A DNA stretch of 62,496 bases, the filler included, from Dimargaris cristalligena (taxonomy: Eukaryota), in the NCBI GenBank assembly GCA_003614675.1. It is 5 parts of 5 records of this genome, joined end to end, with 100 filler letters (N's around TTAATTAATTAA, not from the genome) between each part and the next. Parts side by side here need not be neighbours in the genome. Positions count along the whole stretch, not along the records: positions 1 to 12,489 come from ML003039.1; 4 more parts are not named here. One strand, given 5' to 3'. The notes beneath the pieces are model-generated. The model searched no databases and was not told the DNA's origin. It saw only the letters and a list, made by a program, of their open reading frames with translations. Shown here in pieces: positions 1 to 27,430 of this stretch (its first letter is position 1; each line of letters begins with the position of its first letter). Both the position numbers and the translations under genes were made by a program.

Positions 1-712
1 CCGGGGGGGCGGAAAAGCCCCCCCCCCCCCCAGATTGGCTGGGACAAGCGTCGGATGCCAGTAGTCGCAGCCGGCCTGAACCTGGTCATTGGCCTGGCTC
101 TACATGTATTGCCAATGAGCAGCATAGGCGTGCATGCTACGCGCAAATCGGCGGGGAGAACTCCGCGCTACGATGGTCCTCCTCCTTAAGAGAAACCCCC
201 ACTAGCCAGCCATTAATTATTTCTCCCACCCACAACAACCATATATGCGCATTGGAGATGAGATGCCCTTCTTGCTCTCCGAATTTAATGTATATGCGGC
301 TAATCCACCACCACTCTATTGCTTGACTCCTTTTGCGCTATTCAGGGCAGCTCAGTTGATCCTATTATATCCTTTTTCATATAAATACTCTTTTACCCCG
401 AGAATCCTGTCCCCCCACTCTTTCTCTCTTTTCCTACTATTTCCCAACTCCCACACACCCCCCCGTCGTGTTTCAGCTTGGCGTTCCTGCTGCTACTATT
501 TCTCGCCTTGCCGAACCGCGTCCTTCTCCTCCTCCTATAACTACTAGCCCTCTCCCGCTTTGGTTTCGTTACTCTCCAATTAATAGCCCTCCCTCTTCTT
601 GCGAGCCTCACGAAGCCAGCTCTATTCCTACTTCGGCCTCCCCCTGATCCCCTTTCCCCCCTTCGATTCTTAAGCACTTTTCCCTGATTGTCGGGAAAGT
701 GCACTCCCCATC

Positions 713-775
713 ACGGATTCCCCACGTCGACTCCTGCTGTTGTTGCGTTGTTGTGATCCACCACCGCCCTGGTAA
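713..775 (+). promoter_or_regulatory. Candidate non-AUG upstream ORF in ODC leader, (M)DSPRRLLLLLRCCDPPPPW*
   Basis: Open frame 674-775 has no ATG. ACG at 713 has A at -3 and G at +4. Ends CCA CCA CCG CCC TGG TAA. Confidence 0.65.
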
Positions 776-1406
776 TTCTTTCGGCTAGTCACATACTTCT
801 GACCTTCCTCAGCTCCACCGACGCTATATATTTTGGTCCGGATCCGCGCCTCCTGCTCCCGAACGACCTCCGACCCCGCCCAACCCACCTGTCCGAATCA
901 CCTCCCCTCCCCCGCTGCGGATAAGCCTTGCTTACCTCGCCCCCCCTTTCATGCTTCCCGGAGTTTATTTCGAATTCGCCGACTTTGCCTACACTTGAGT
1001 CTACCCCCTCTGTCCTCAATTTATCGACCAATTCGGTTGCGTTCGACCTGCATCGACTCCCCCTTCCCCACTGTGTTTCTCGACCGCGTCGCAGTTGGTG
1101 TGCTTGCGCGGAGGGTTCTCGGAGACCCTCCCCTTCATTCTGCTGTTGATCGATAGCCAGCCCGGCCCGATTTGTAATTAATTATAATATCCCCCGATAC
1201 GTCAACCCTTCCTTAACTTTTAGCCTTCAGGAACCCTGGGCCCCTCTGATCCAATTTCCGCGTACACTGGTGCCTCCTTTATTATACTGTCCATATTTTT
1301 GTCTCTCTCTGTCTGTGTGTGTGTGTGTGGCTGTAACCCCCTGATTGCCCCTTCCACTCACTGAGCCTGATTGTACTTAATCGCCAACCCCACTCTTCCG
1401 TCAGCC

Positions 1407-2792
1407 ATGACGTCCCTATCCCCCAATCTCTCTGCTCGTGTCACCATCGAGACCGCTTCCGTTGCGAAGCGCCTCGAGTCCGTGGCCCCTGCGGCGGTGT
1501 CCCGTCCCTCGGTCCTCTTCGACAGTCTGCCCGAGGTGCAACGCTCCCAAATTATCGACCATAAGGCGGAGGACGCCTTCTTTGTGGCTGACCTGGGTGA
1601 GGTCTATCGCCAGTATTTGCAGTGGCGTCAGCTGCTGCCCCGTGTGGAACCCTTCTACGCCGTTAAGTGTAACCCAGACCCCTCCGTGATTCGGCTCATG
1701 GTTAAATTGGGCATCGGGTTTGACTGTGCCAGCCGTTCCGAGCTGCAAACCGTCTTGGACTTGGGCGCCCCGGCCGACTCCATCGTCTATGCCAATCCGT
1801 GCAAGCAGCCGTCCCACCTGCGTTACGCCCTAGAGCACCAGGTCCGACTCATGACCTTTGACAATAGCGATGAGCTTCGCAAGGTGAAAAAGCTGTACCC
1901 GAATGCCCACCTTCTCCTACGCATTCTGACCGACGATTCCAAGTCACTGTGCCAGCTGGGGATTAAATTCGGGGCCCCACTGAACACCACCGTGGGCCTT
2001 CTGCGTCTTGCCCGTGAGCTTGGTCTGACTGTGGTGGGGGTCAGCTTCCACGTTGGCAGTGGGTGCCGGGATGCTTCCCCATTCGCCGATGCCGTTCTGC
2101 GGGCCCACCGGGTTTTCCAAGAGGGGACTGAGCTGGGCTTTGACATGGATATCCTGGATATAGGAGGTGGCTTCCCCAGTGCCCTGGTTCGGGAGGGGGT
2201 TACTTTCCCCCAGGCCGCCGAAGCCCTCCGGGGCGCCCTGGATACCTATTTCCCACCCTCCAAAGGCGTGCGTATTATCGCCGAACCCGGGCGCTATTTT
2301 GTGTCGTCGGCCTTTACCCTAGCGGTTAATATTGTGGGACGCCGTGTGGTGGCCGACCCTCTGGACCCCACCACCCCCACCCACTTCATGTACTATGTCA
2401 ATGACGGTGTCTACGGGAGCTTCAACTGTCTCATGTTCGACCATGCGACCGTGTACCCGAAGATCCTCGTTCGTGACGGCGAACTCCACCAGCCGGCCTC
2501 CCCCGCCCTGTCCGATAGTGGCGAATCCAGCACCACTTCCTTGGACACCCTGTGTTCGGGACCGGCGGACCCCTTTGATCGCGACTGTAGTATTTGGGGC
2601 CAAACATGCGACTCCATTGATTGCATTCGCCCGACCGCCCGTCTGCCGGAATTAGACGTGGGTGACTGGCTCCAGTTCCACGACATGGGGGCCTACACGG
2701 TGTGTGCCGCGTCCCGCTTCAACGGGTTCCGACCCAGCCGGGTGGTTTACACCGACGCCTACAACACCATCCCCTATGAATATCTCCTTTAA
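1407..2792 (+). CDS. SPE1: Ornithine decarboxylase (intronless CDS)
   Basis: PFYAVKCN PLP-lysine motif, FDCAS, GVSFHVGSG, IAEPGRY and WGQTCDSID with the catalytic Cys retained. ATG at 1407 in gccATG context; the ORF track starts at an upstream TTG. Confidence 0.96.
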   Translation: MTSLSPNLSARVTIETASVAKRLESVAPAAVSRPSVLFDSLPEVQRSQIIDHKAEDAFFVADLGEVYRQYLQWRQLLPRVEPFYAVKCNPDPSVIRLMVKLGIGFDCASRSELQTVLDLGAPADSIVYANPCKQPSHLRYALEHQVRLMTFDNSDELRKVKKLYPNAHLLLRILTDDSKSLCQLGIKFGAPLNTTVGLLRLARELGLTVVGVSFHVGSGCRDASPFADAVLRAHRVFQEGTELGFDMDILDIGGGFPSALVREGVTFPQAAEALRGALDTYFPPSKGVRIIAEPGRYFVSSAFTLAVNIVGRRVVADPLDPTTPTHFMYYVNDGVYGSFNCLMFDHATVYPKILVRDGELHQPASPALSDSGESSTTSLDTLCSGPADPFDRDCSIWGQTCDSIDCIRPTARLPELDVGDWLQFHDMGAYTVCAASRFNGFRPSRVVYTDAYNTIPYEYLL

Positions 2793-3451
2793 TATCCAGG
2801 CGATCCAGGGGGAAGGGGGGGCACACTGTTGTTCGATTGGCGATACTGGTATTATTGGTATACTCTACAGCTCCACCCGGATTTTACTTTACTTCCGTCA
2901 TTATTATTCGTTTTTAAATTTAGCCCCATGAATTTAGGAAAACGAAACCATTTTACCTTCTGCTAATTTAGCTACTCCTTCGACATTTGTGCCCGACTGC
3001 CCTTACCACCATTTATCTATTTCTTTTAGCATATTGATGATTGGCATCACCCGTAGGGCGACCAAGACGATGAACAGATTTAGTTTTAGAATATAAATCG
3101 CTAACCTACCTGATGGGGGAGGGCGGAGTACCTTGCTGAGTATTTGGCATTTCGTTTTTAAAACCAGGGCGATAATGGTGATTAATCGCCCATTTCAATA
3201 GGAGCGTTATTCCCGAGAATCCATTCAAGTCAATCTTTTCCGTAGTCTAGTATTTGGGGGTCAAATAGGCGGCTGTTACTCGCTGGTTGAGGGTGGGGTG
3301 GATTAACAGAAATACCCACGTTTATTGTATAAAAAGCTACACCAGGTTGGGGTATTTATGAATTAAAAAAATTAATCGCGGCCATGCAGCTTATTCATTT
3401 ATGCAAACCTGCGTATCCCTTCTATTCTATATAGATCATAGGCTGAGTTCA

Positions 3452-6327
3452 CTAAAAGTACCATTGATCGGCCTCCAGGCGTTCGATTCGAGTGACGCGC
3501 GTCCCACATCGCTCGCAGGAATGATCCTGGTGGTCAAGTGCCATTTGAGTGGCGATGCAAACGTAACAAAAGACATGACCGCAGTTGGTTTGGTAGGGCA
3601 CTCGGACGGGGTGTTGGGAGAATAGCCCACTCTTGGCCGCCGCTGTCGTAGTGATGGTAGTGGCGGTAGGATCATCAGCGTAGTTTGGGGTATTATCAGA
3701 TGTGGCAGCCACTTCCGATTGGCCGTGGAGGATAAAATCCAGGGCCTCCGGATGTGCTTTCATGGCCCCTGGTCCGCCCTGAAGACAAATGAGACACACC
3801 TGAATGGGAATGGCTGCAAGTGCCTTAGTTCGCGCCTGACTCGCCGCTGCACCCACCGCCGGCAAGCCCAGCCACCGGGCGGTGGATTGGCAGGTGGTTT
3901 GGATGCCCCGTTTTAAACGCCGGAAGTTGATGAGGGGGAGGATGAACATGAGAAATTCCTGGGGATATGGGAGGAGTGAATGGCAGGCAGGGAGGGAGTG
4001 ATGCGCTAATAGTTAGGAATAACACTGACAATCACTTCCCCACCCTAGGTTAAGGGGACTGGGCCGCCCAAAACGAACGGGGGGGTTGGAAAAGGGAAGT
4101 CCAGATTATGCTTGTCAGCCGATTACGGCGTATGCCGAGTAGTCAAATGTGGGCATATGAAAAGGAAGAAGGTATTGTGCCATTGGTGGAAAAACATTGT
4201 CGAATTTTCGTTTTCCGAAAAAGAAGAGGAATAATAGGGGGACGATGGATTCGGCAATATGAATACGGCAATTTGAAATAGGGAGTACCAATTGTATAAA
4301 GATAAATAAAGAATCCTACTTACCGTAAAGGCGTACCAAACCATCTGACGATTCAGGTATTCGTAGCTTATCTGAGACTGCATTTGAGGCCGGGAATATA
4401 CCAGTCGCATTCCCAGCAGTCGATTTAAAAGGGACTTGTAGCTGCAGTACACGCAATGCAGACCGAGGCAGCATATGGCATTTTGATTATCAATTTGGAA
4501 AATGAAAGAATAATGGCAATGTGATATATAAAACAACCTGGGTGTGAGTGATTGGAAGAATTGGAGATTTAATCAAGCCATCCGAAGCCCCCCCTCCCTT
4601 CACAGCATTTCCTCGTTCCATGGCATACTTCCTATTTGCAATAGCCATTCCCAACTAAGGTAAGTAAAAAAACAATGAAGCAAACACCTACCGGCCTGAG
4701 TATAGAAAGGCCACGAAATTGATTAGGGTGAGCGTATGGTACCACTTATCAACGAGCTGCACTATACGCCACATCCTTTGTCGCCAGGTATGCTAAAATA
4801 ATGTGATTCACAGTAATATTATATATATATATATATAGCGGGTTAGCCCAGATACATGAATATTGTTATATCGAAGAAGGAGTGGGGAGGGATACCACTC
4901 ATTAGACATCTGCTAGGTCTGCCGCCTACAATAAAACCGTATTCTATTGTAATGCAATAAACAAACCCAAAGTGGGCGGGGTGGGCAGTAGAGTGGTATA
5001 CTCCATTGAGTAGGTTTGATTCCTATTAGGGATGGTAACTTACATCTGGATGGTCCGCCCAACCCTTCGATATCATCAGTCGGTTTAACCGGGTCCAGAA
5101 ATATTGACCACCTACGAGTAGGGCACCGTAGGCGATCTTTTGGGTATGGGATAAGTTGGGGTTCCGAGTGTGATAGCGGTCTGGTTATAGGTGGAAGGTC
5201 GAGTACATTGGTGGTGATGGTGGTGTGTGTGTGGGGGGGGGGGTGATGTAGTACATGATTGAGCATATTAGTAGATAGTATAAGCAGCGATATTGGCTGG
5301 TAGAACGGGAGGGCGCGGGGATCCACTTCAGGCGCAACGGTTTCCACCAACCTATTCCGCCAATCAGTCAAAGTCGAGTGCGAAACAGTTTCGTTGACTG
5401 GATAGGATTCCCTCTAGTCTCCGACCAGGAATAAACCTATACAATAAAAAATTCGGTGGTCCACCGTTACTCACCTTTATGATGTGAAAATTCGTCACGG
5501 TAACGTAGGTTTTGTAATTGGGCTCCGTAGGTGGCCCCTTTTGTGCCACCAACAGTGAGGCCGTAGACGATCAAATGAAATACGGCAGTGATTTCGGGCT
5601 CTATCTTATCTTTGAGGGTACTCTAAACAGCGGCGGCGGGGGGATATATATTCGTATTGGGAGGGAGGGGGCAATTTAAACACCATTCTTATAGAAATGC
5701 ACATTCCCTATCTAATCGGTTACGGCCCAATCTACTGGACTTTGAACACCGAGCGATTGGCTACTATTCCTATTTCTATTTCTATTTCTATTATTATCAT
5801 TATTATTATTTCAAGCTAAAATAGTATGCCCAGTTTACCTTAAAGTAACGAAGTCCCTCCGTCCAGTGCTCCTTGATCGTTTCAACTAGGTCCGCGTCCA
5901 ATAAATCGGCGTCCAGTTGATTAACCCGCGAGACATGCTGTTCTTTAGCTTGGTTGCCGCTGCTCGGAAAGGCCACCCCAAACCAGGTCGCTAGTCCCTC
6001 CCACGGTGACCGGCCATTAGTATGTCGTGGTGGTGGTAATGGGCCAGTCCCCACGGGGTATGAATGAGAGCTTTCGTCGCCGCTGCCATTGGAACGGTGG
6101 AACCGACGCTCCCAGTGCTGAATGCGAGGCGCGAGGGCCTGGGCCTCAGGGGCCCAGAACGGGACGGGGGAACGTACCGCTTGGAGACCCCGGGCCTGGG
6201 GATCGGCCAACGGTGTCGCTGGAGGGGGGGAAGGCCTGGTGGCCAGTAGAGCCAGAACCGGGGCTGAAGGTAACGGCGGAGGCGAAGACGAAGGTGGAGG
6301 CGGTGTTGGGGAATCGGCGGAGGGCAT
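3452..6327 (-). CDS. PEX2: Peroxin Pex2, RING E3 ligase, about 6 exons
   Basis: Exons approx 6327-5839 (RVNQLDADLLD), 5622-5475 (ATYGAQLQNLRY), 5180-5045 (QKIAYGALLVGGQYFWTRL), 4792-4692 (LINFVAFLYSGR), 4441-4324 (ISYEYLNRQMVWYAFT), 3958-3452 (EFLMFILP, RING CLIC..CGHVFCYVC..CERC). GT-AG junctions join in frame. Confidence 0.92.
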
Positions 6328-7098
6328 TATAGACTCAAGGGGGAAGAGTTGCCACTATCGTTGCAATGGAACTATAGAAGAATCGGGCCAAATGGGCAGA
6401 CAAGGTCTCTCTTAGGGGGTATTGGTCAAGGGGGCTGTGGATAAAAAGGGGTTGATGGGAAAGAAGCCGTGGTTATTGTCGAAGGGTGTAGTGAGTAATA
6501 GGACCTTATTACTGCCTGTGTGTGCGTGACGGGTTAGAATTGTAGAGTAGGGGGCTGGTTGGTAGTACTGGGACCAACTCTACCTGCGCAATGGGAAGAG
6601 AGCTCTTCTGGGTCAATTAATTGAAGCTAAGGGATTCCCCACATTCGGTGCTTTGGCTTTTGAGACTAGTTTACTACTATATAGTGTGCTGAGAGGCAAT
6701 ACCAGTGACACGTGAAGGTTTCGGACTGCCCCTCTTCTTTAAGTTGCCCCATATGTTAGTGCACTCTACGCGAAGGTTAGAAGAGACTGGTCACGTCACG
6801 CACTACCCCCGTATTAGGCTTAATCAAACTACTAAGAGCACCCCTTGACCACCTCATATTCCCATAAACACTTTAAACCATGGCAAACTGCCCACTTCAT
6901 CTTAATACTTTTTTTCATTTTCTCAACAAGATAATAAATAATAAGAATGTAATGGCTATAAGGGAAATGGGGAAGTGACAAGCGTTAACGTGGGGTTTTA
7001 AATGACATCCATTTTAGGATAAAACAAAATATAAATGGATTTTGAAAAGCTGAAATAGGAAAAACCAATGTTCGGTATTAATATATTTACTACTACTA

Positions 7099-9974
7099 CT
7101 ACGTACCGAAAGAGTGGCGGTAGAAGGCGGGCGGTAGGAAATTCATCATGAGATCAAACGGCATTTCCACTGCGAAAAGGGTGTTGGGTCCCCAGAATTC
7201 CAAGAGCCCTACATTCTTCAGTCCACTGTCCACCACACGGTATTCGACGGCCTTGTGGCCTACCACTAGGTGGGTCCCACTGGCTGACTCGCCCTCTTGG
7301 TGACTTTGAAGGATCCCGTGGAAACCCGCGGGGGCCACCGTCAGGGAGTCGGCCGTACGCTGGTTGAGTTGGCGGGATAGGTTGGCCTCCATGTCTACGT
7401 CGGCGGTTTCTTGCCTATTCCCGGCCTTCTTAGCCTCACCATCCTGGGTAGCATCATCTTTCATCTCCTTCTCTTCCTCGTCGTCGTCGTCATCATCATC
7501 ATCATCATCGTCCTCATCTACGTCCTCGTCGTCGGTATAGTCGGCAAATGCTCCCGGCACACGGCAAAGCGAATAAGGGGTCCATACCACGAGGTCATCC
7601 GGGGTGGTTGGGTCCACCGCGATACCTTGGATGTATTCAGGGGGATGGGCGAACTGAACCGGTGGCCGGCGCAGACTAGCCCGGGTCCAATCGTTGACAT
7701 CGGAATCCAGTAGGCTGTAAATCAAGACCCGGTTACTGACGAACCCCAGCACCAGGTAGGGGCGGGTGGGGTGGAAACGGAGGGCGGTGCATAGGTCCTT
7801 TTGGCGCACGATGGTATGGCTGTGGGCCAAACGGTGGAGGTCAAACACATGGATGACATGGTGGTCGTCGCACGTGGCCAGCCATTGGCCGTCGTCACTG
7901 ACCGTTAGCAAACGAATCTGGGCCGACGTCCCCAAGAAGGGCGTCGAGGCACCATCGGTGGCGGTCGGTCCCAGCGCACGCCGGGTCGAGCGACGGCGGC
8001 TGTGGTGGTTGAACTGGTGCACCACGGTGGGACTCGCGGCGGGCCAGGTAGTCAAATCAATGACGGAAATGACCGACTCGTAATTCACCATGATCAAGTG
8101 GTCCCCGTCGGGCGTGAACCGGAGGTGTTGGGCCCCCTGGTAGATCCCTCCAGCTCCTCCGCCGCCTGCGACCGGCGAACGGGCGGGCAGGGCCGCACGC
8201 GGGGGGAAGTGGGGCATCTTAGTCAAGGTTACCGACCCCTTGACCATCTCGTCGGCCACACTGGGGTCCCGTTCCACCGCGAACAAACGTACCTTTTGGT
8301 TATCGGATACGGCGATCCACCGGCCATCCGGGGAAATATCGGCGCTCACGACGTGGGAGCCCCCGCTATCCAACCGCAGGTTCAGCACGATGGCCAACCC
8401 CTGGACATGCAGGGAACCGGGGCTCAGCGATTGCCCATTACCACTGCCGCCATTGAAATTGGCCGCGGCCGCTCCACCCCGCAGCACAAACTCCTGGGGA
8501 ATCTTGTACAGACGCAGCTGGTCGTTGGCGAACCCCAGCAGGAACCGTCCCTCCGGGGCCAGGGCCAGACAGCGCAGGGCGGGGGAGTGGCTGATCCCGG
8601 CGAGTTGGGGCTGGGTGTATTCCTCCACGAGGGTGGCCACGACCTTATTGTCCGTACCGGCCGTCACCAAAGTCAAAGAGGGGAGGGGAGACCGGCCCGG
8701 GCCCGGGCTCGGGGACGGATTGAGCTTCGAGGCGGAGGGGTACTGACCCTGGGCGGCCGCGCGGGCCGCCAGACTCCGCGGATCGGTGGGGAACACAATA
8801 AGCGCCCGAATATCGTGCTTGTGGCGCGGGGTGGATTGGGCGTGGTGCCATTGTTTGAACGCCGCGCCCTGGCGCGTACCGAAATCCGACTCGTTGGTTA
8901 ATGCGGTGCTGTGGAATTCCCCGACCCGCATATCGATACTCCCCGAAAAGACCTGGGTGCCGGTGGGATCGGCCGCCAAACAAGTAACCCCGGCCCGGTG
9001 GGCGGGAAAAGCATGGAGTAACGTCAACGAATCGCCATCGTAGAAATTCACCTGGCCACTGGCTAAACCCGTCACAATCGTGTCGCACGCGAGGACTAAC
9101 AGGGCCTGGGCGGGGTTGTTGCCGACCGCTTTGGCGGGGGTGTGGAATTCGCCCAGTTTGCCACCCGTGGTCATATCCCAGACACTGACGTTGCCCAGGA
9201 TGGTACTCGAGTACAGCTGGTTCCGACTCGGGTGCCAGGTCACGGCAACAATCCGTTCATTGAGGTTGGTAAACGTAGTCCGGTACGCGAGTTCGCTATC
9301 CGTAATATCAAACACCCGGACGCTGCCCTTGTCGCAGCCAATGGCCAGAAGCGTATGGTTGTGGTTGACGGCCATACTCCAAATCGGACCTTCGCCCGAC
9401 TCATAGGATCGCTTAATCGTAGAGTTGTTCAAATCCCACTCTTCGACAAATCCGTGCAGACCAGCACTGAACAGACGGAGGGGGGCGCGGGATCCCGAGC
9501 CATTGCCTTTTTCCTCGGGCGAGGCCTGGTGAACCCAGGCAATGGATTCAATCGACCGGGTTTCGCTACCAACCATAACCTGGATAGAAAACCGATTACA
9601 AGAATCACCGTGATGGTGATTTAATATAATATATATACAGTATACTGGATGAGTTAGTCAGATCATATGGAATATCCCAATCCGTATAGATCACAATGAG
9701 GGACAAGATAATTCGATCCGAGGAGCTCAGCTCCCGCGTTAGACATATGCCTATCATATTTGGCCCGAATACCGCGGGCCATGGAAGTGGGAAGTACTCG
9801 GGCCTAACTAACCTTTTCGGGGACATTCTTTTTATTCGCATTCCGAATTTCGATTTGTCCGGTTTCGCGTCCACAGGCCAAGAACCGCCCCGCCTTGAAA
9901 GTAGGCGGAGCAACGGCCAGACATGTATACGCCGATTGGCGGGGGGAGTAGCATGTCGAACGAACGAATTCCAT
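7099..9974 (-). CDS. UTP4: U3 snoRNP WD40 protein Utp4/cirhin, 2 exons
   Basis: Exon 1 9974-9813 (MEFVRSTCY..LACGRETGQIEI); exon 2 9579-7099 with WD repeats, SIESIAW, RLFSAGLHG, HKHDIRAL and C-terminus LPPAFYRHSFGT typical of Utp4. Confidence 0.88.
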
Positions 9975-12489
9975 CGGGGATTCGGAGGTGAGTGGGTGGG
10001 GAGAGGGGCGGAGAAGGTTCGTAACTCGAGTTCAATTTAACCAAGACTGCTCTCGTTGTGCTGCCTGTTCGATATTCAATGGGGTGAGCTGGCAAAAGAG
10101 GGGGGCGAGTCTCTTTTTCAGAAAGTCGGGAATGTACGAGGGCTGAATTCAATAATGGACTAGGGTATGAAAAGGACGGGGAATAGCCACAGGGAAAGGC
10201 CGAATAGGTTGGTCCAAAAGAAAAAAGGAGTAACTGGATACCAAACTCGCTTGTTAATGTTTTGGCTGTGTTTGCGCAAGCCTAGCAGCAAAATCTACCA
10301 ATTGCTAATTCAAAAATGTAAAAAAAATGAGCCATGGCCGAACAGCCGTAACTTGAAAAATCATCCAGAAATATCCAAATGACTATGATCACGTGATTAT
10401 GAAGCATTATCCTACTGCTTGCTGTCAACTGCTGCTGGTGGGGTGGATATCCAACAAAATGCCTGTCATAAATACCGACATCGCCTCAAACACAAAATCT
10501 CTAAAGCGTATTTACACTTAAAACTAATCCCATCCATTAATTTAAATGGTACAATGGATATTAAACGTATCCCCTAAACACAAATTACATAATAATATTG
10601 GGAAATCGTAAAGCAGCTAATATATTAAATCGGTTTGGTTGGTTATCCAGACCACATTATTAACAGGCACTAACGGCATTATAATCCTTCCCAGCCAATC
10701 AAACACCGTCGATATAGCAGGCATAGATGGCTAATGTAATGAAGACAATGCGCGGGTTTCCCGAACGTACTGGTCACTGAATATGTCAAGATTATTTTAT
10801 ATCTGCAAGCCTATTTAGCCATTATTTTAACTTGTTATAGTGAATAGTTAAAATCTCAACTATCTGTGTACTTGAATATTCTTCTAGTCCTATGCAACCC
10901 TCTCGCTGGGTCAAGAGGGCGGTCTTTTAGGCTAGATTACACCTTTTCCTAGCGGAATCTTCCATAATAACAAGCTAGAAAATGACCATCGCTGCATGGA
11001 CTCTTACAGCCGAACATGGAAGCCAAAGCCCACCCCGCAAGAATTTATCCCCAACTTCCCAACAACCTAGATTTGGCCAGACATTGTGATACTCCATATG
11101 CCACTTTTGATATAGAGTAACGTAAATAAAATCCTCCGTTAGTTCAAACACCAACAAGCGGTCTAACAAGCGAGCCTCAACCTTCCACCGGCCATGGTGG
11201 TTGTGAATAGAAATAGATTAAAAATGGTAGAGATGTCGGCGAAGGAAAGGAAGGTGGTCAAGAAGAGGAGCTTGTGGCTTGGGCCACCAGTTAACGGGTA
11301 TATGGGTTTGCTGCCGAGGAGAGGGGCGGTGCATGATTTACAAAGGCACGGCCCTGGGCTATAGACACTCCCTTTCTCCCTTTCCAGGGTCTACGAACGG
11401 GGGAAATAATAGCATAAGGCCAATCCAATGCCTGTCCGCCTGCGCCGTTCGCTTTCCTTTTGGGCGAACTGGGAAAGGGGGACACTGAAGTTGGCGATTC
11501 ACGAAGATAAAGCGGCTTGGACCGGGGACTCGACTAGAGATCTGGGCATCCACAACCCGCACCGAGGATACTATCCGAAGGGTAAATACCAAAGCTCCTT
11601 AAACCTTAGGCTATTTCCGCCTCCCAGCCAAAAAATATATATGCAGATTAGCCAACATCGTTGGGGTTCGTAGTGCCTGCATATCAAGTAGTAAAAATTA
11701 AAGTTTTGTTTTTGGCTTAGGTAAAATAAGCCATTCTAGATAAATGTTGGACTTACTAACTAGTGGCCGTGGGTCGCCCTATGAATTGCTTTTAGTCACA
11801 ACTGTGCTGCCGTGGGCAGCTGGCCAGAGGCCGCGTAAGCCCCAGTACACATTGCTAATCCAAAAAGTAGTCATACTTTGGATAAATTCAAGGTCCCCGG
11901 ATGATTGACGAGTTATTTCCATGGGAACGGTCTGGGGTCATTAATGTTATTTTATTTCTTTATGCTAGCTGATTCTCTTTTCGTTCAGCTTTCCAAATCA
12001 TATTTCCATTTACCTTTCCGTCTATTATTGACAAAGTTATAGGTCATCAAAATCAATAGTGATTTTAAAACTATGACGATTGACCACCTCATATTACTAC
12101 TTTTATGCTATTGACAATCCTTTATGAGCAGGGCTTAGGAATAACCAGCCTCCGGTGGATTCCTTCTGGGAATCACACCATACAACTTCTTAGCATGAAT
12201 TCCATTTATTAGTTTTATCGATATCCGATATGAAGGAGGTCTGGGAAGGCTGTGTCTTCCAACCTTCCAAATTCTATATTTTGTTTCTTTTTTAACCATT
12301 CATGACTATAGTTTAGCCAGTAGGTTAATTTTTCCCCTATCTTTAGGTTTTTTTTATGTCCTACAATTATTGCAGCATTACTCTTAGCTATAGTTATTTA
12401 GTTTGGTTATTTTCCTATATATATCTTAGTAGTATCCCCTCAGTTGAAGGGACAAGTTAGTTTCGAGATAAATGAATAAATATCTGTTT

Positions 12490-25712: not shown

Positions 25713-27430
<1,718 letters not shown>

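Follow-up and report, generated by a model that had tools for sequence, protein, structure and literature searches.

The leader of the ornithine decarboxylase (ODC) gene of Dimargaris cristalligena probably carries a small, non-AUG-initiated coding element that is a further member of the published class of upstream conserved coding regions (uCCs) of ODC leaders, to judge from its sequence an unusually short one with tryptophan as its last codon. The DNA analysed here, which we refer to as the window, is 62,496 nucleotides (nt) long including filler and consists of five joined parts, from five records of this genome, which may not be neighbours; positions 1-12,489, which include the ODC gene, come from ML003039.1. 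The gene and the candidate element are laid out as follows:

674-775, plus strand: ATG-less frame of 33 sense codons followed by a TAA stop, translated as ALFPDCRESALPITDSPRRLLLLLRCCDPPPPW
713-775, plus strand: the candidate uCC proper, from the ACG to the stop, with 20 sense codons (TDSPRRLLLLLRCCDPPPPW) and the TAA
713-715, plus strand: ACG, the putative near-cognate start codon of the uCC, in the context cccatcACGg, with A at -3 and G at +4
758-772, plus strand: the PPPPW codons CCA CCA CCG CCC TGG, a predicted eIF5A-dependent stall site, with the stop directly after
1407-2792, plus strand: intronless ODC open reading frame (ORF) of 461 amino acids, with matches to PF02784 (E 2e-85) and PF00278 (E 4e-22)

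The small frame is bounded in phase by TAA codons at 671-673 and 773-775 and contains no ATG. From the ACG at 713, 19 more sense codons are read before the stop. This ACG is the only near-cognate codon in the frame with a strong context, and one of seven among the 115 near-cognates in 400-1404. The ten codons 5' of it in the open frame are not likely to be coding. An earlier note on this DNA had described an ATG-less frame at 674-775 ending in PPPPW-stop, an ACG at 713 in the strong context atcACGg, and a distance of about 630 nt to the ODC ATG; translation showed each of these details to be accurate, and the distance from the stop of the small frame to the ODC ATG at 1407, given an ODC ORF at 1407-2792, is 631 nt. 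The coding part itself appeared unstructured when RNA of 700-800 was folded (z = +0.72), which favours a signal at the level of the peptide or the codons. An adjoining frame at 587-673 on the plus strand, in the same phase and split off by the TAA at 671-673, ends in LIPFPPFDS-stop and thus also has two adjacent prolines; no strong-context start was noticed in it.

Upstream conserved coding regions have been described in the leaders of ODC homologues from animals, Pezizomycotina, Basidiomycota and Zygomycota (PMC2811004, section 6). Two adjacent prolines near the C-terminus are found in almost all of them; most have, in place of an AUG, a conserved AUU, UUG or ACG in good context, and the longest have 100 codons, the shortest "as few as 22 codons in Zygomycota" (PMC2811004). 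The Dimargaris element lies in a candidate leader position in front of an ODC gene, lacks an AUG, shows an ACG in good Kozak context at 713 and ends in PPPPW-stop, and we place it in the class because these features match the sequence-level description in the review. Its length is near the 22 codons given for Zygomycota. It differs from the fungal elements, as that review describes them, in its host, which belongs to the Dimargaritales (Zoopagomycota), in its 20 sense codons, in having tryptophan last, and in the hairpin that lies 5' of it. A literature search found no paper on Dimargaris together with ornithine decarboxylase, and for Zygomycota together with "upstream conserved coding region" the review PMC2811004 alone came up.

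All 424 residues of the NCBI Dimargaris cristalligena model of ODC are matched by the protein encoded in the window, which has in addition two in-frame stretches, of 10 and 27 residues, that the model lacks. Both missing stretches carry residues that fit the family consensus and form part of a continuous ORF in the window; the two short "introns" of the public model therefore look like annotation artefacts. A FastTree phylogeny was built from 108 ODC rows, with one locus, L057, dropped by the program. The window ODC grouped with those of D. verticillata and Tieghemiomyces with a support of 99, which places the lineage in the Dimargaritales (Kickxellomycotina, Zoopagomycota).

The frame might have arisen by chance in C-rich promoter or spacer DNA, in which case PPPP-TGG-TAA would be a random string that is neither part of the ODC mRNA nor translated. 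The leader contains 37-39% C, so that proline codons are common in it, and in 5000 dinucleotide-preserving shuffles of 400-1406, which served as the chance model, a PPW within 12 codons of a stop appeared in 315 (6.3%). A PPW immediately 5' of a stop was much rarer (42 of 5000 shuffles, 0.84%), and a PPW near a stop that also had, 15-30 codons upstream, a near-cognate in strong context, a criterion defined post hoc, was seen in 14 (0.28%). On both strands and in three frames of the 62,496 nt, PPW-stop occurs once, in the small frame; for PPW within 12 codons of a stop the count is four. A composite pattern consisting of RNNACGG, 10-32 codons, PP[PW] and a stop within 16 codons was found once in the 125 kb of window strands, at 713, although this and the other composite patterns were set up after the data had been inspected.

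Evidence against chance also came from the leaders of other ODC genes. Eighty ODC loci, many of them transcript-sized, were collected from JGI metagenome contigs, the query being an alignment of 24 zygomycete-type ODCs. Eighteen of the 80 have PPW within 12 codons of a stop in the sense-upstream region (47 kb), against none in the antisense-upstream, downstream-sense and downstream-antisense controls (141 kb in total), so that this motif can be taken as a mark of ODC leaders. The pattern ACG-PP[PW]-stop was likewise present sense-upstream in 18 loci (55 kb) and absent from the same three controls (164 kb); these 18 comprise 17 loci of a Pezizomycotina clade and L001, a Linnemannia locus. About 14 of the 18 PPW loci have animal-type frames ending in EPPWDPS-stop, and 13 of 15 animal-type frames examined have an ATT 43-47 codons 5' of the W, mostly in the context aaaATTc. 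These features agree with the account of AZIN1 in the available parts of PMC10855120 and PMC11058473.

The ODC protein of L001 is 98.7% identical to that of Linnemannia elongata and groups with it in the tree. Its upstream element sits in an apparent transcript contig, within a 548-nt leader that contains no ATG, and the frame reads LPIITALRNSSFRSFLFRRPPPWHPGTDGLV up to the stop, with an ACG, in the context atcatcACGg, that precedes the W of PPPW by 19 codons. The window and L001 thus have the heptamer ATCACGG in common, in frame and at the same spacing; a count of 22 in the 545 kb of locus strands gives it a background of about 4e-5 per position, which argues against chance. In L004, a fungal-like, unplaced locus near chytrids and Blastocladiella in the tree, an ACG with A at -3 and C at +4 lies 22 codons before the W of DPPWFILDFS-stop. 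The Pezizomycotina clade comprises 24 rows and was so named because of the 93% identity of L026 to the ODC of Bipolaris victoriae, the named top matches, which are all ascomycetes, and the tree. Seventeen of its loci have an ACG-started frame (RNNACGG) of 32-44 codons with a PPP motif, mostly as NN[IL]PPP, and the ACG lies 27-29 codons before the third proline in all 14 loci examined codon by codon. Seven members of the clade lack the pattern; four of these have less than 420 nt of upstream sequence.

Start codon, context, spacing and PP[PW] thus recur in L001, L004 and the Pezizomycotina clade, and PPW is invariant in an alignment of seven fungal and animal-type upstream frames. The earlier note had proposed an ODC-type polyamine element, and these loci, with the 18 of 80 sense leaders against none in the PPW controls, lend support to that proposal. 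Three observations weigh on the other side: the peptide that leads from the ACG to the prolines can hardly be aligned, with only PPW invariant; alignment showed no meaningful nucleotide homology of the window element with L001 or L004; and the supporting loci belong to other phyla. Nevertheless, the rarity in shuffles and in the window, the absence of both patterns from all control regions of the 80 loci, the heptamer shared with Linnemannia and a significant hairpin at a conserved distance (see below) together make a chance origin of the small frame unlikely, and untranslated spacer DNA seems to us a quite improbable account of it.

The Pezizomycotina ACG frame shares with the window a hairpin 8-13 nt before the ACG of RNNACGG, a Leu/Arg-rich middle and a proline triplet near its end. 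It differs in being 32-44 codons long, in having PPP (with variants such as DSKPPP) without Trp, followed by 3-15 further codons, and in overlapping a second conserved frame that ends in F[KR]PP-stop. The ODC leaders of this clade accordingly hold two overlapping conserved upstream frames, one of them being the ACG-started frame with the PPP motif. The second is in the +1 frame and reads ...LER.LF...QLPHRT..VLPL.EE.S...F[KR]PP-stop, with its stop 142-175 nt (always 1 mod 3) after the first stop; both frames are found in L079, L080, L008, L059, L064, L030, L045, L049, L018, L077, L055, L036 and L016. A separate fungal ODC clade (six rows, support 99) has upstream frames that end in GEPP-stop or LEPP-stop, 580-820 nt before the ODC match, and these probably represent another type of uCC ending in two prolines:

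L007, 80-163: frame ending in GEPP-stop or LEPP-stop
L072, 1786-1878: frame of the same type
L050, 1854-1985: frame of the same type
L023, 3-125: frame of the same type

The features of the putative leader that bear on the presence of the element in the ODC mRNA are:

400-1406, plus strand: putative 5' leader of the ODC mRNA, pyrimidine-rich and ATG-poor (C 37%, T 31%, G 17%, A 15%)
380-387, plus strand: TATAAATA, found by pattern search, a candidate TATA box of a long ODC leader
951-998, plus strand: the sole AUG upstream ORF (uORF) of the leader, 15 codons, in a weak context with T at -3 and C at +4

A pyrimidine skew of the plus strand begins at about 300-350, around TATAAATA, and continues to the ODC ATG, with a GC skew of -0.15 to -0.74. 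The element lies on the ODC strand, in this continuous pyrimidine-rich and ATG-poor stretch after the candidate TATA box. The single ATG in 400-1406 compares with 9.6 +/- 2.6 in shuffles, of which 0 of 5000 had one or fewer, and the single ATG in 297-1406 with an expected 11.0 +/- 2.7, a count that low being reached in 0 of 3000 shuffles; in the 3' flank the ATG count is normal (8 against 10.3 expected). The presence of an AUG uORF in weak context agrees with the remark that conventional uORFs frequently accompany uCCs (PMC2811004). A search of positions 1-3000 against Rfam gave 0 matches at E<=1, and a promoter and terminator scan, which used bacterial consensus sequences, gave nothing useful. 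Two further features were seen in the putative leader: a GT dinucleotide repeat at 1311-1328, about 80 nt before the ODC ATG, and an 8-pair GC-rich hairpin at 1110-1131, between the small frame and the ODC ATG, where one such hairpin was found against a shuffle mean of 1.1.

Some of the same data speak against a transcribed and scanned element. CAT is also low in 297-1406 (7 where 16.0 are expected; 1 of 3000 shuffles had as few), and in 297-775 ATG (0 against 3.6) and CAT (2 against 7.0) are about equally low. In 776-1406 there is one ATG against 7.4 (3 of 3000 shuffles) and five CAT against 8.7 (185 of 3000), so that strand-specific avoidance of ATG is clear only for this part. Because the depletion of CAT runs parallel, the depletion of ATG is no proof that 674-775 is scanned; as an argument for scanning it was weakened accordingly, and the matching loss of CAT before 775 counts in favour of the chance explanation. 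Moreover, a TATA-like TATATATT at 825, on the 3' side of the small frame, could put the start of transcription downstream of the element, as the chance explanation would have it. Finally, there is an intron-like outline at 772-812, with GTAATT at 772, CTGAC at 799-803 and AG at 811-812, a span of 41 nt.

If 772-812 were an intron, its removal would take out the Trp and stop codons of the small frame, which would then read past PPPP into CSTDAIYFGPDP and stop at 922-924, and PPW-stop would be an artefact of the unspliced sequence. A further GTAATT at 1174, with a possible branch site and an AG 49-56 nt on, could be taken in the same sense. A pattern search of the leader found no GT[AG][AT]GT splice donor except in a GT repeat. 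Two introns were verified in the window, one of about 170 nt in an enolase gene and one of about 315 nt in a gene with Pex2/Pex12 and RING regions, whose Pex2/Pex12 fragment was all that a Pfam survey of 40 small frames turned up. Both open with GTAAGT and far exceed 41 nt, although n=2 is a small sample. Splicing would also destroy a Trp that is invariant in all compared upstream frames. We therefore regard a spliced leader as highly improbable.

Immediately upstream of the ACG, the RNA is predicted to fold:

674-702, plus strand: RNA hairpin of 10 pairs with one bulge and an 8-nt loop, its 3' end 10 nt before the ACG at 713

The minimum free energy of the window hairpin is -14.2 kcal/mol, with z = -3.13 and 2 of 200 shuffles as stable when 52 nt were folded, and z = -3.97 with 0 of 300 shuffles as stable for a 40-nt segment; 2.9% of 173 sliding 40-nt windows in the vicinity were equally stable. 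An unrelated hairpin in L001 also ends 10 nt before the ACG (-15.7; z -4.02 and -3.65; 0.7% of sliding windows), and in L004 a 13-pair hairpin ends 9 nt before the ACG (-15.3; z -3.71 and -5.72; 1.6% of sliding windows). For the Pezizomycotina clade, the hairpin has 8-9 pairs, with its end about 11 nt 5' of the ACG, and corresponds to a conserved block whose translation in the ACG frame is TAFGLxKG. The block is kept where a stop closes the frame just upstream (L018, L077), and it persists despite a frame-shifting indel (L059) and an insertion confined to the loop (L045). L016 and L019 have different stems in place of the clade hairpin, at the same position. No stable upstream hairpin was found at 12 scorable animal-type ATT starts, where z ranged from -0.99 to +1.38 in mononucleotide shuffles.

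In an alignment of 17 Pezizomycotina sequences, 89.8% of cells pair, against 28-51% (maximum 50.8%) when the partners were slid, and the covariation score of 0.224, compared to 0.155 in shuffles, was reached by 1 of 500. The shuffle p was <=0.05 in 9 of 14 loci of the clade that were tested. The case for the hairpin is not uniform, however: in the remaining 5 of 14 loci p was >0.05, two of the 14 (L049 and L064) had no clear hairpin, and the covariation is modest, with changes on both sides in only 3 of 8 pairs, as many as 53 of 500 shuffles reach. The weak covariation within the clade is attributable to the close relationship of its members. The recurrence of unrelated stems at one distance in separate phyla is a stronger argument than covariation. 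With a module defined post hoc as a hairpin ending 8-13 nt before the ACG of RNNACGG, PP[PW] 10-32 codons later and a stop within 16 codons, the window has the hairpin at 674-702, the ACG at 713, PPPPW at 758-772 and the stop at 773. We found no description of a hairpin upstream of a uCC in a literature search whose reach did not extend to the primary uCC reports and their supplements; section 6 of PMC2811004 does not mention one, and none is described in the available parts of PMC5009743 and PMC11058473.

The fungal ODC uCCs were reportedly treated by Ivanov, Loughran and Atkins in 2008, the uCC of AZIN1, with PPW, eIF5A and ribosome queuing, is said to come from Ivanov et al. in 2018, and the yeast HOL1 polyamine uORF reportedly from Vindu et al. 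in 2021. The available parts of PMC10855120, PMC11550727 and PMC11058473 set out the model of PPW, eIF5A and queuing, and that of PMC10855120 gives the C-terminus of the animal AZIN1/ODC uCC as PPWxxPS-stop. Together with PMC2811004, these sources bear out what the earlier note had said of non-AUG uCCs with PPW in ODC homologues. As far as those parts go, the window element has in common with the uCC of AZIN1 and animal ODC a non-AUG start, PPW near the end of an inhibitory frame, and the pathway; in the animal-type loci an acidic residue often precedes PPW, as it does in D-PPPPW of the window. The animal frames differ in their AUU start 43-47 codons before the W, the xPS-stop after PPW and the lack of an upstream hairpin, whereas the window element has an ACG, 20 codons, a stop right after the W and a hairpin, and neither an AUU at about 45 codons nor PPWxxPS-stop is found in it.

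The HOL1 uORF, as presented in the available part of PMC11550727, is a short, AUG-started upstream ORF with a conserved terminal PS-stop that shows polyamine- and eIF5A-sensitive stalling and queuing. The stalling and queuing are what would link it to the Dimargaris element; it differs in its AUG, its terminal PS-stop and its host, a transporter gene. The earlier note had seen a loose likeness to HOL1 in the poly-Leu stretch of the small frame. By that same part of the source, the conserved feature of HOL1 is the terminal PS-stop, which the window frame lacks, and the poly-Leu resemblance was set aside since it is not a shared defining feature.

A translated uCC in this position might also serve as something other than a polyamine sensor: as a constitutive brake, as a reinitiation uORF, or in a general response to eIF5A or proline supply, with a variant in which the hairpin would be an eIF3-contacting element like those before GCN4 uORF1. 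Polyamine dependence has been established directly for AZIN1 only, and indirectly for Neurospora crassa (PMC2811004). The terminal PS-stop of the animal frames is absent from the window frame, a 5' hairpin and a gap of 631 nt to the ODC AUG would suit reinitiation, and folded elements before short uORFs are on record in the available part of PMC3131280. The gene in question, however, is ODC, whose homologues carry polyamine-responsive uCCs, and the motif that is invariant is PPW, which in AZIN1, according to the available parts of the papers cited above, requires eIF5A and is sensitive to polyamines. On balance we think it unlikely that the element is translated but does not sense polyamines.

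What the analysis shows is the features of the sequence, how rare they are and that they recur in other ODC leaders. As a polyamine switch, the element would work by a mechanism carried over from AZIN1; its transcription, translation, stalling and polyamine dependence, and the role of the hairpin, are what we infer on that model. Most scanning 43S complexes would bypass the weak ACG and arrive at the ODC AUG. The rare ribosomes that initiate at the ACG would translate 20 codons, reach Pro-Pro-Pro-Pro-Trp and terminate, steps for which eIF5A would be required. High polyamine would hinder eIF5A, so that ribosomes stall at PPPPW-stop and others queue behind them. A queued scanning complex would then be held over the ACG, which lies 57 nt (about two ribosome lengths) from the W, and initiation at the ACG would rise while ODC synthesis falls. 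The distance from ACG to W is 19-22 codons in the three early-diverging lineages, and the distance to the third proline is 27-29 codons in Pezizomycotina; spacings of about two and three ribosome lengths fit a queue that acts as a ruler, without proving it.

When the start codon is in the P site, a hairpin with its 3' edge at -9 to -11 sits approximately where the mRNA leaves the 40S subunit. The hairpin at 674-702 is probably part of the device. The guess that we favour is that, refolding behind the scanning complex, it hinders backward movement and prolongs the stay on the weak start codon. Alternatively, it might contact eIF3, which is also said of the elements before GCN4 uORF1, and favour the resumption of scanning once the short ORF has been read.

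More tentatively, the hairpin, the spacer of about 10 nt, the ACG and the proline stall might constitute one ancient fungal device, represented in Zoopagomycota, Mortierellomycota (L001), the chytrid-like L004 and Pezizomycotina; we consider this possible, but on present evidence would not favour it. It would mean that the fungal ODC uCCs descend from one ancestor, a view we hold with the same reserve, whereas the 2009 review argued for their independent origin (PMC2811004).

Elsewhere in the window, an enolase gene lies at 25956-27430 on the plus strand, in which a GTAAGT intron of about 170 nt separates the first exon from the remainder. A RING-finger peroxin gene at 3455-4572 on the minus strand, convergent with ODC, encodes a Pex2/Pex12 N-terminal region and a C3HC4 RING and has an intron of the form GTAAGT...CTAAC...TAG, about 315 nt long. 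At the start of the window (1-35) there are homopolymer runs of G and C (ccggggggg...cccccccccccc), which may be a low-complexity or assembly-edge feature.

Membership of the Dimargaris element in the uCC class would extend that class to an early-diverging lineage of mycoparasites, in which gene models cannot show the element because it has no AUG. It is the shortest form seen, with 20 codons and the stall motif abutting the stop, and this makes it a compact object on which to test the queuing model. The unrelated hairpins at a fixed distance in four fungal lineages, absent from the animal AUU-type frames, may matter more than the element itself: if they are real and unpublished, they add a testable RNA component to the selection of near-cognate start codons. 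Were the device indeed ancient, the hairpin would be an undescribed cis-element at the exit channel of the 40S subunit that sets the usage of the ACG and with it the gain of the polyamine switch, and the Dimargaris version, with Trp last and 57 nt from start to stall, would be the minimal form of that switch.

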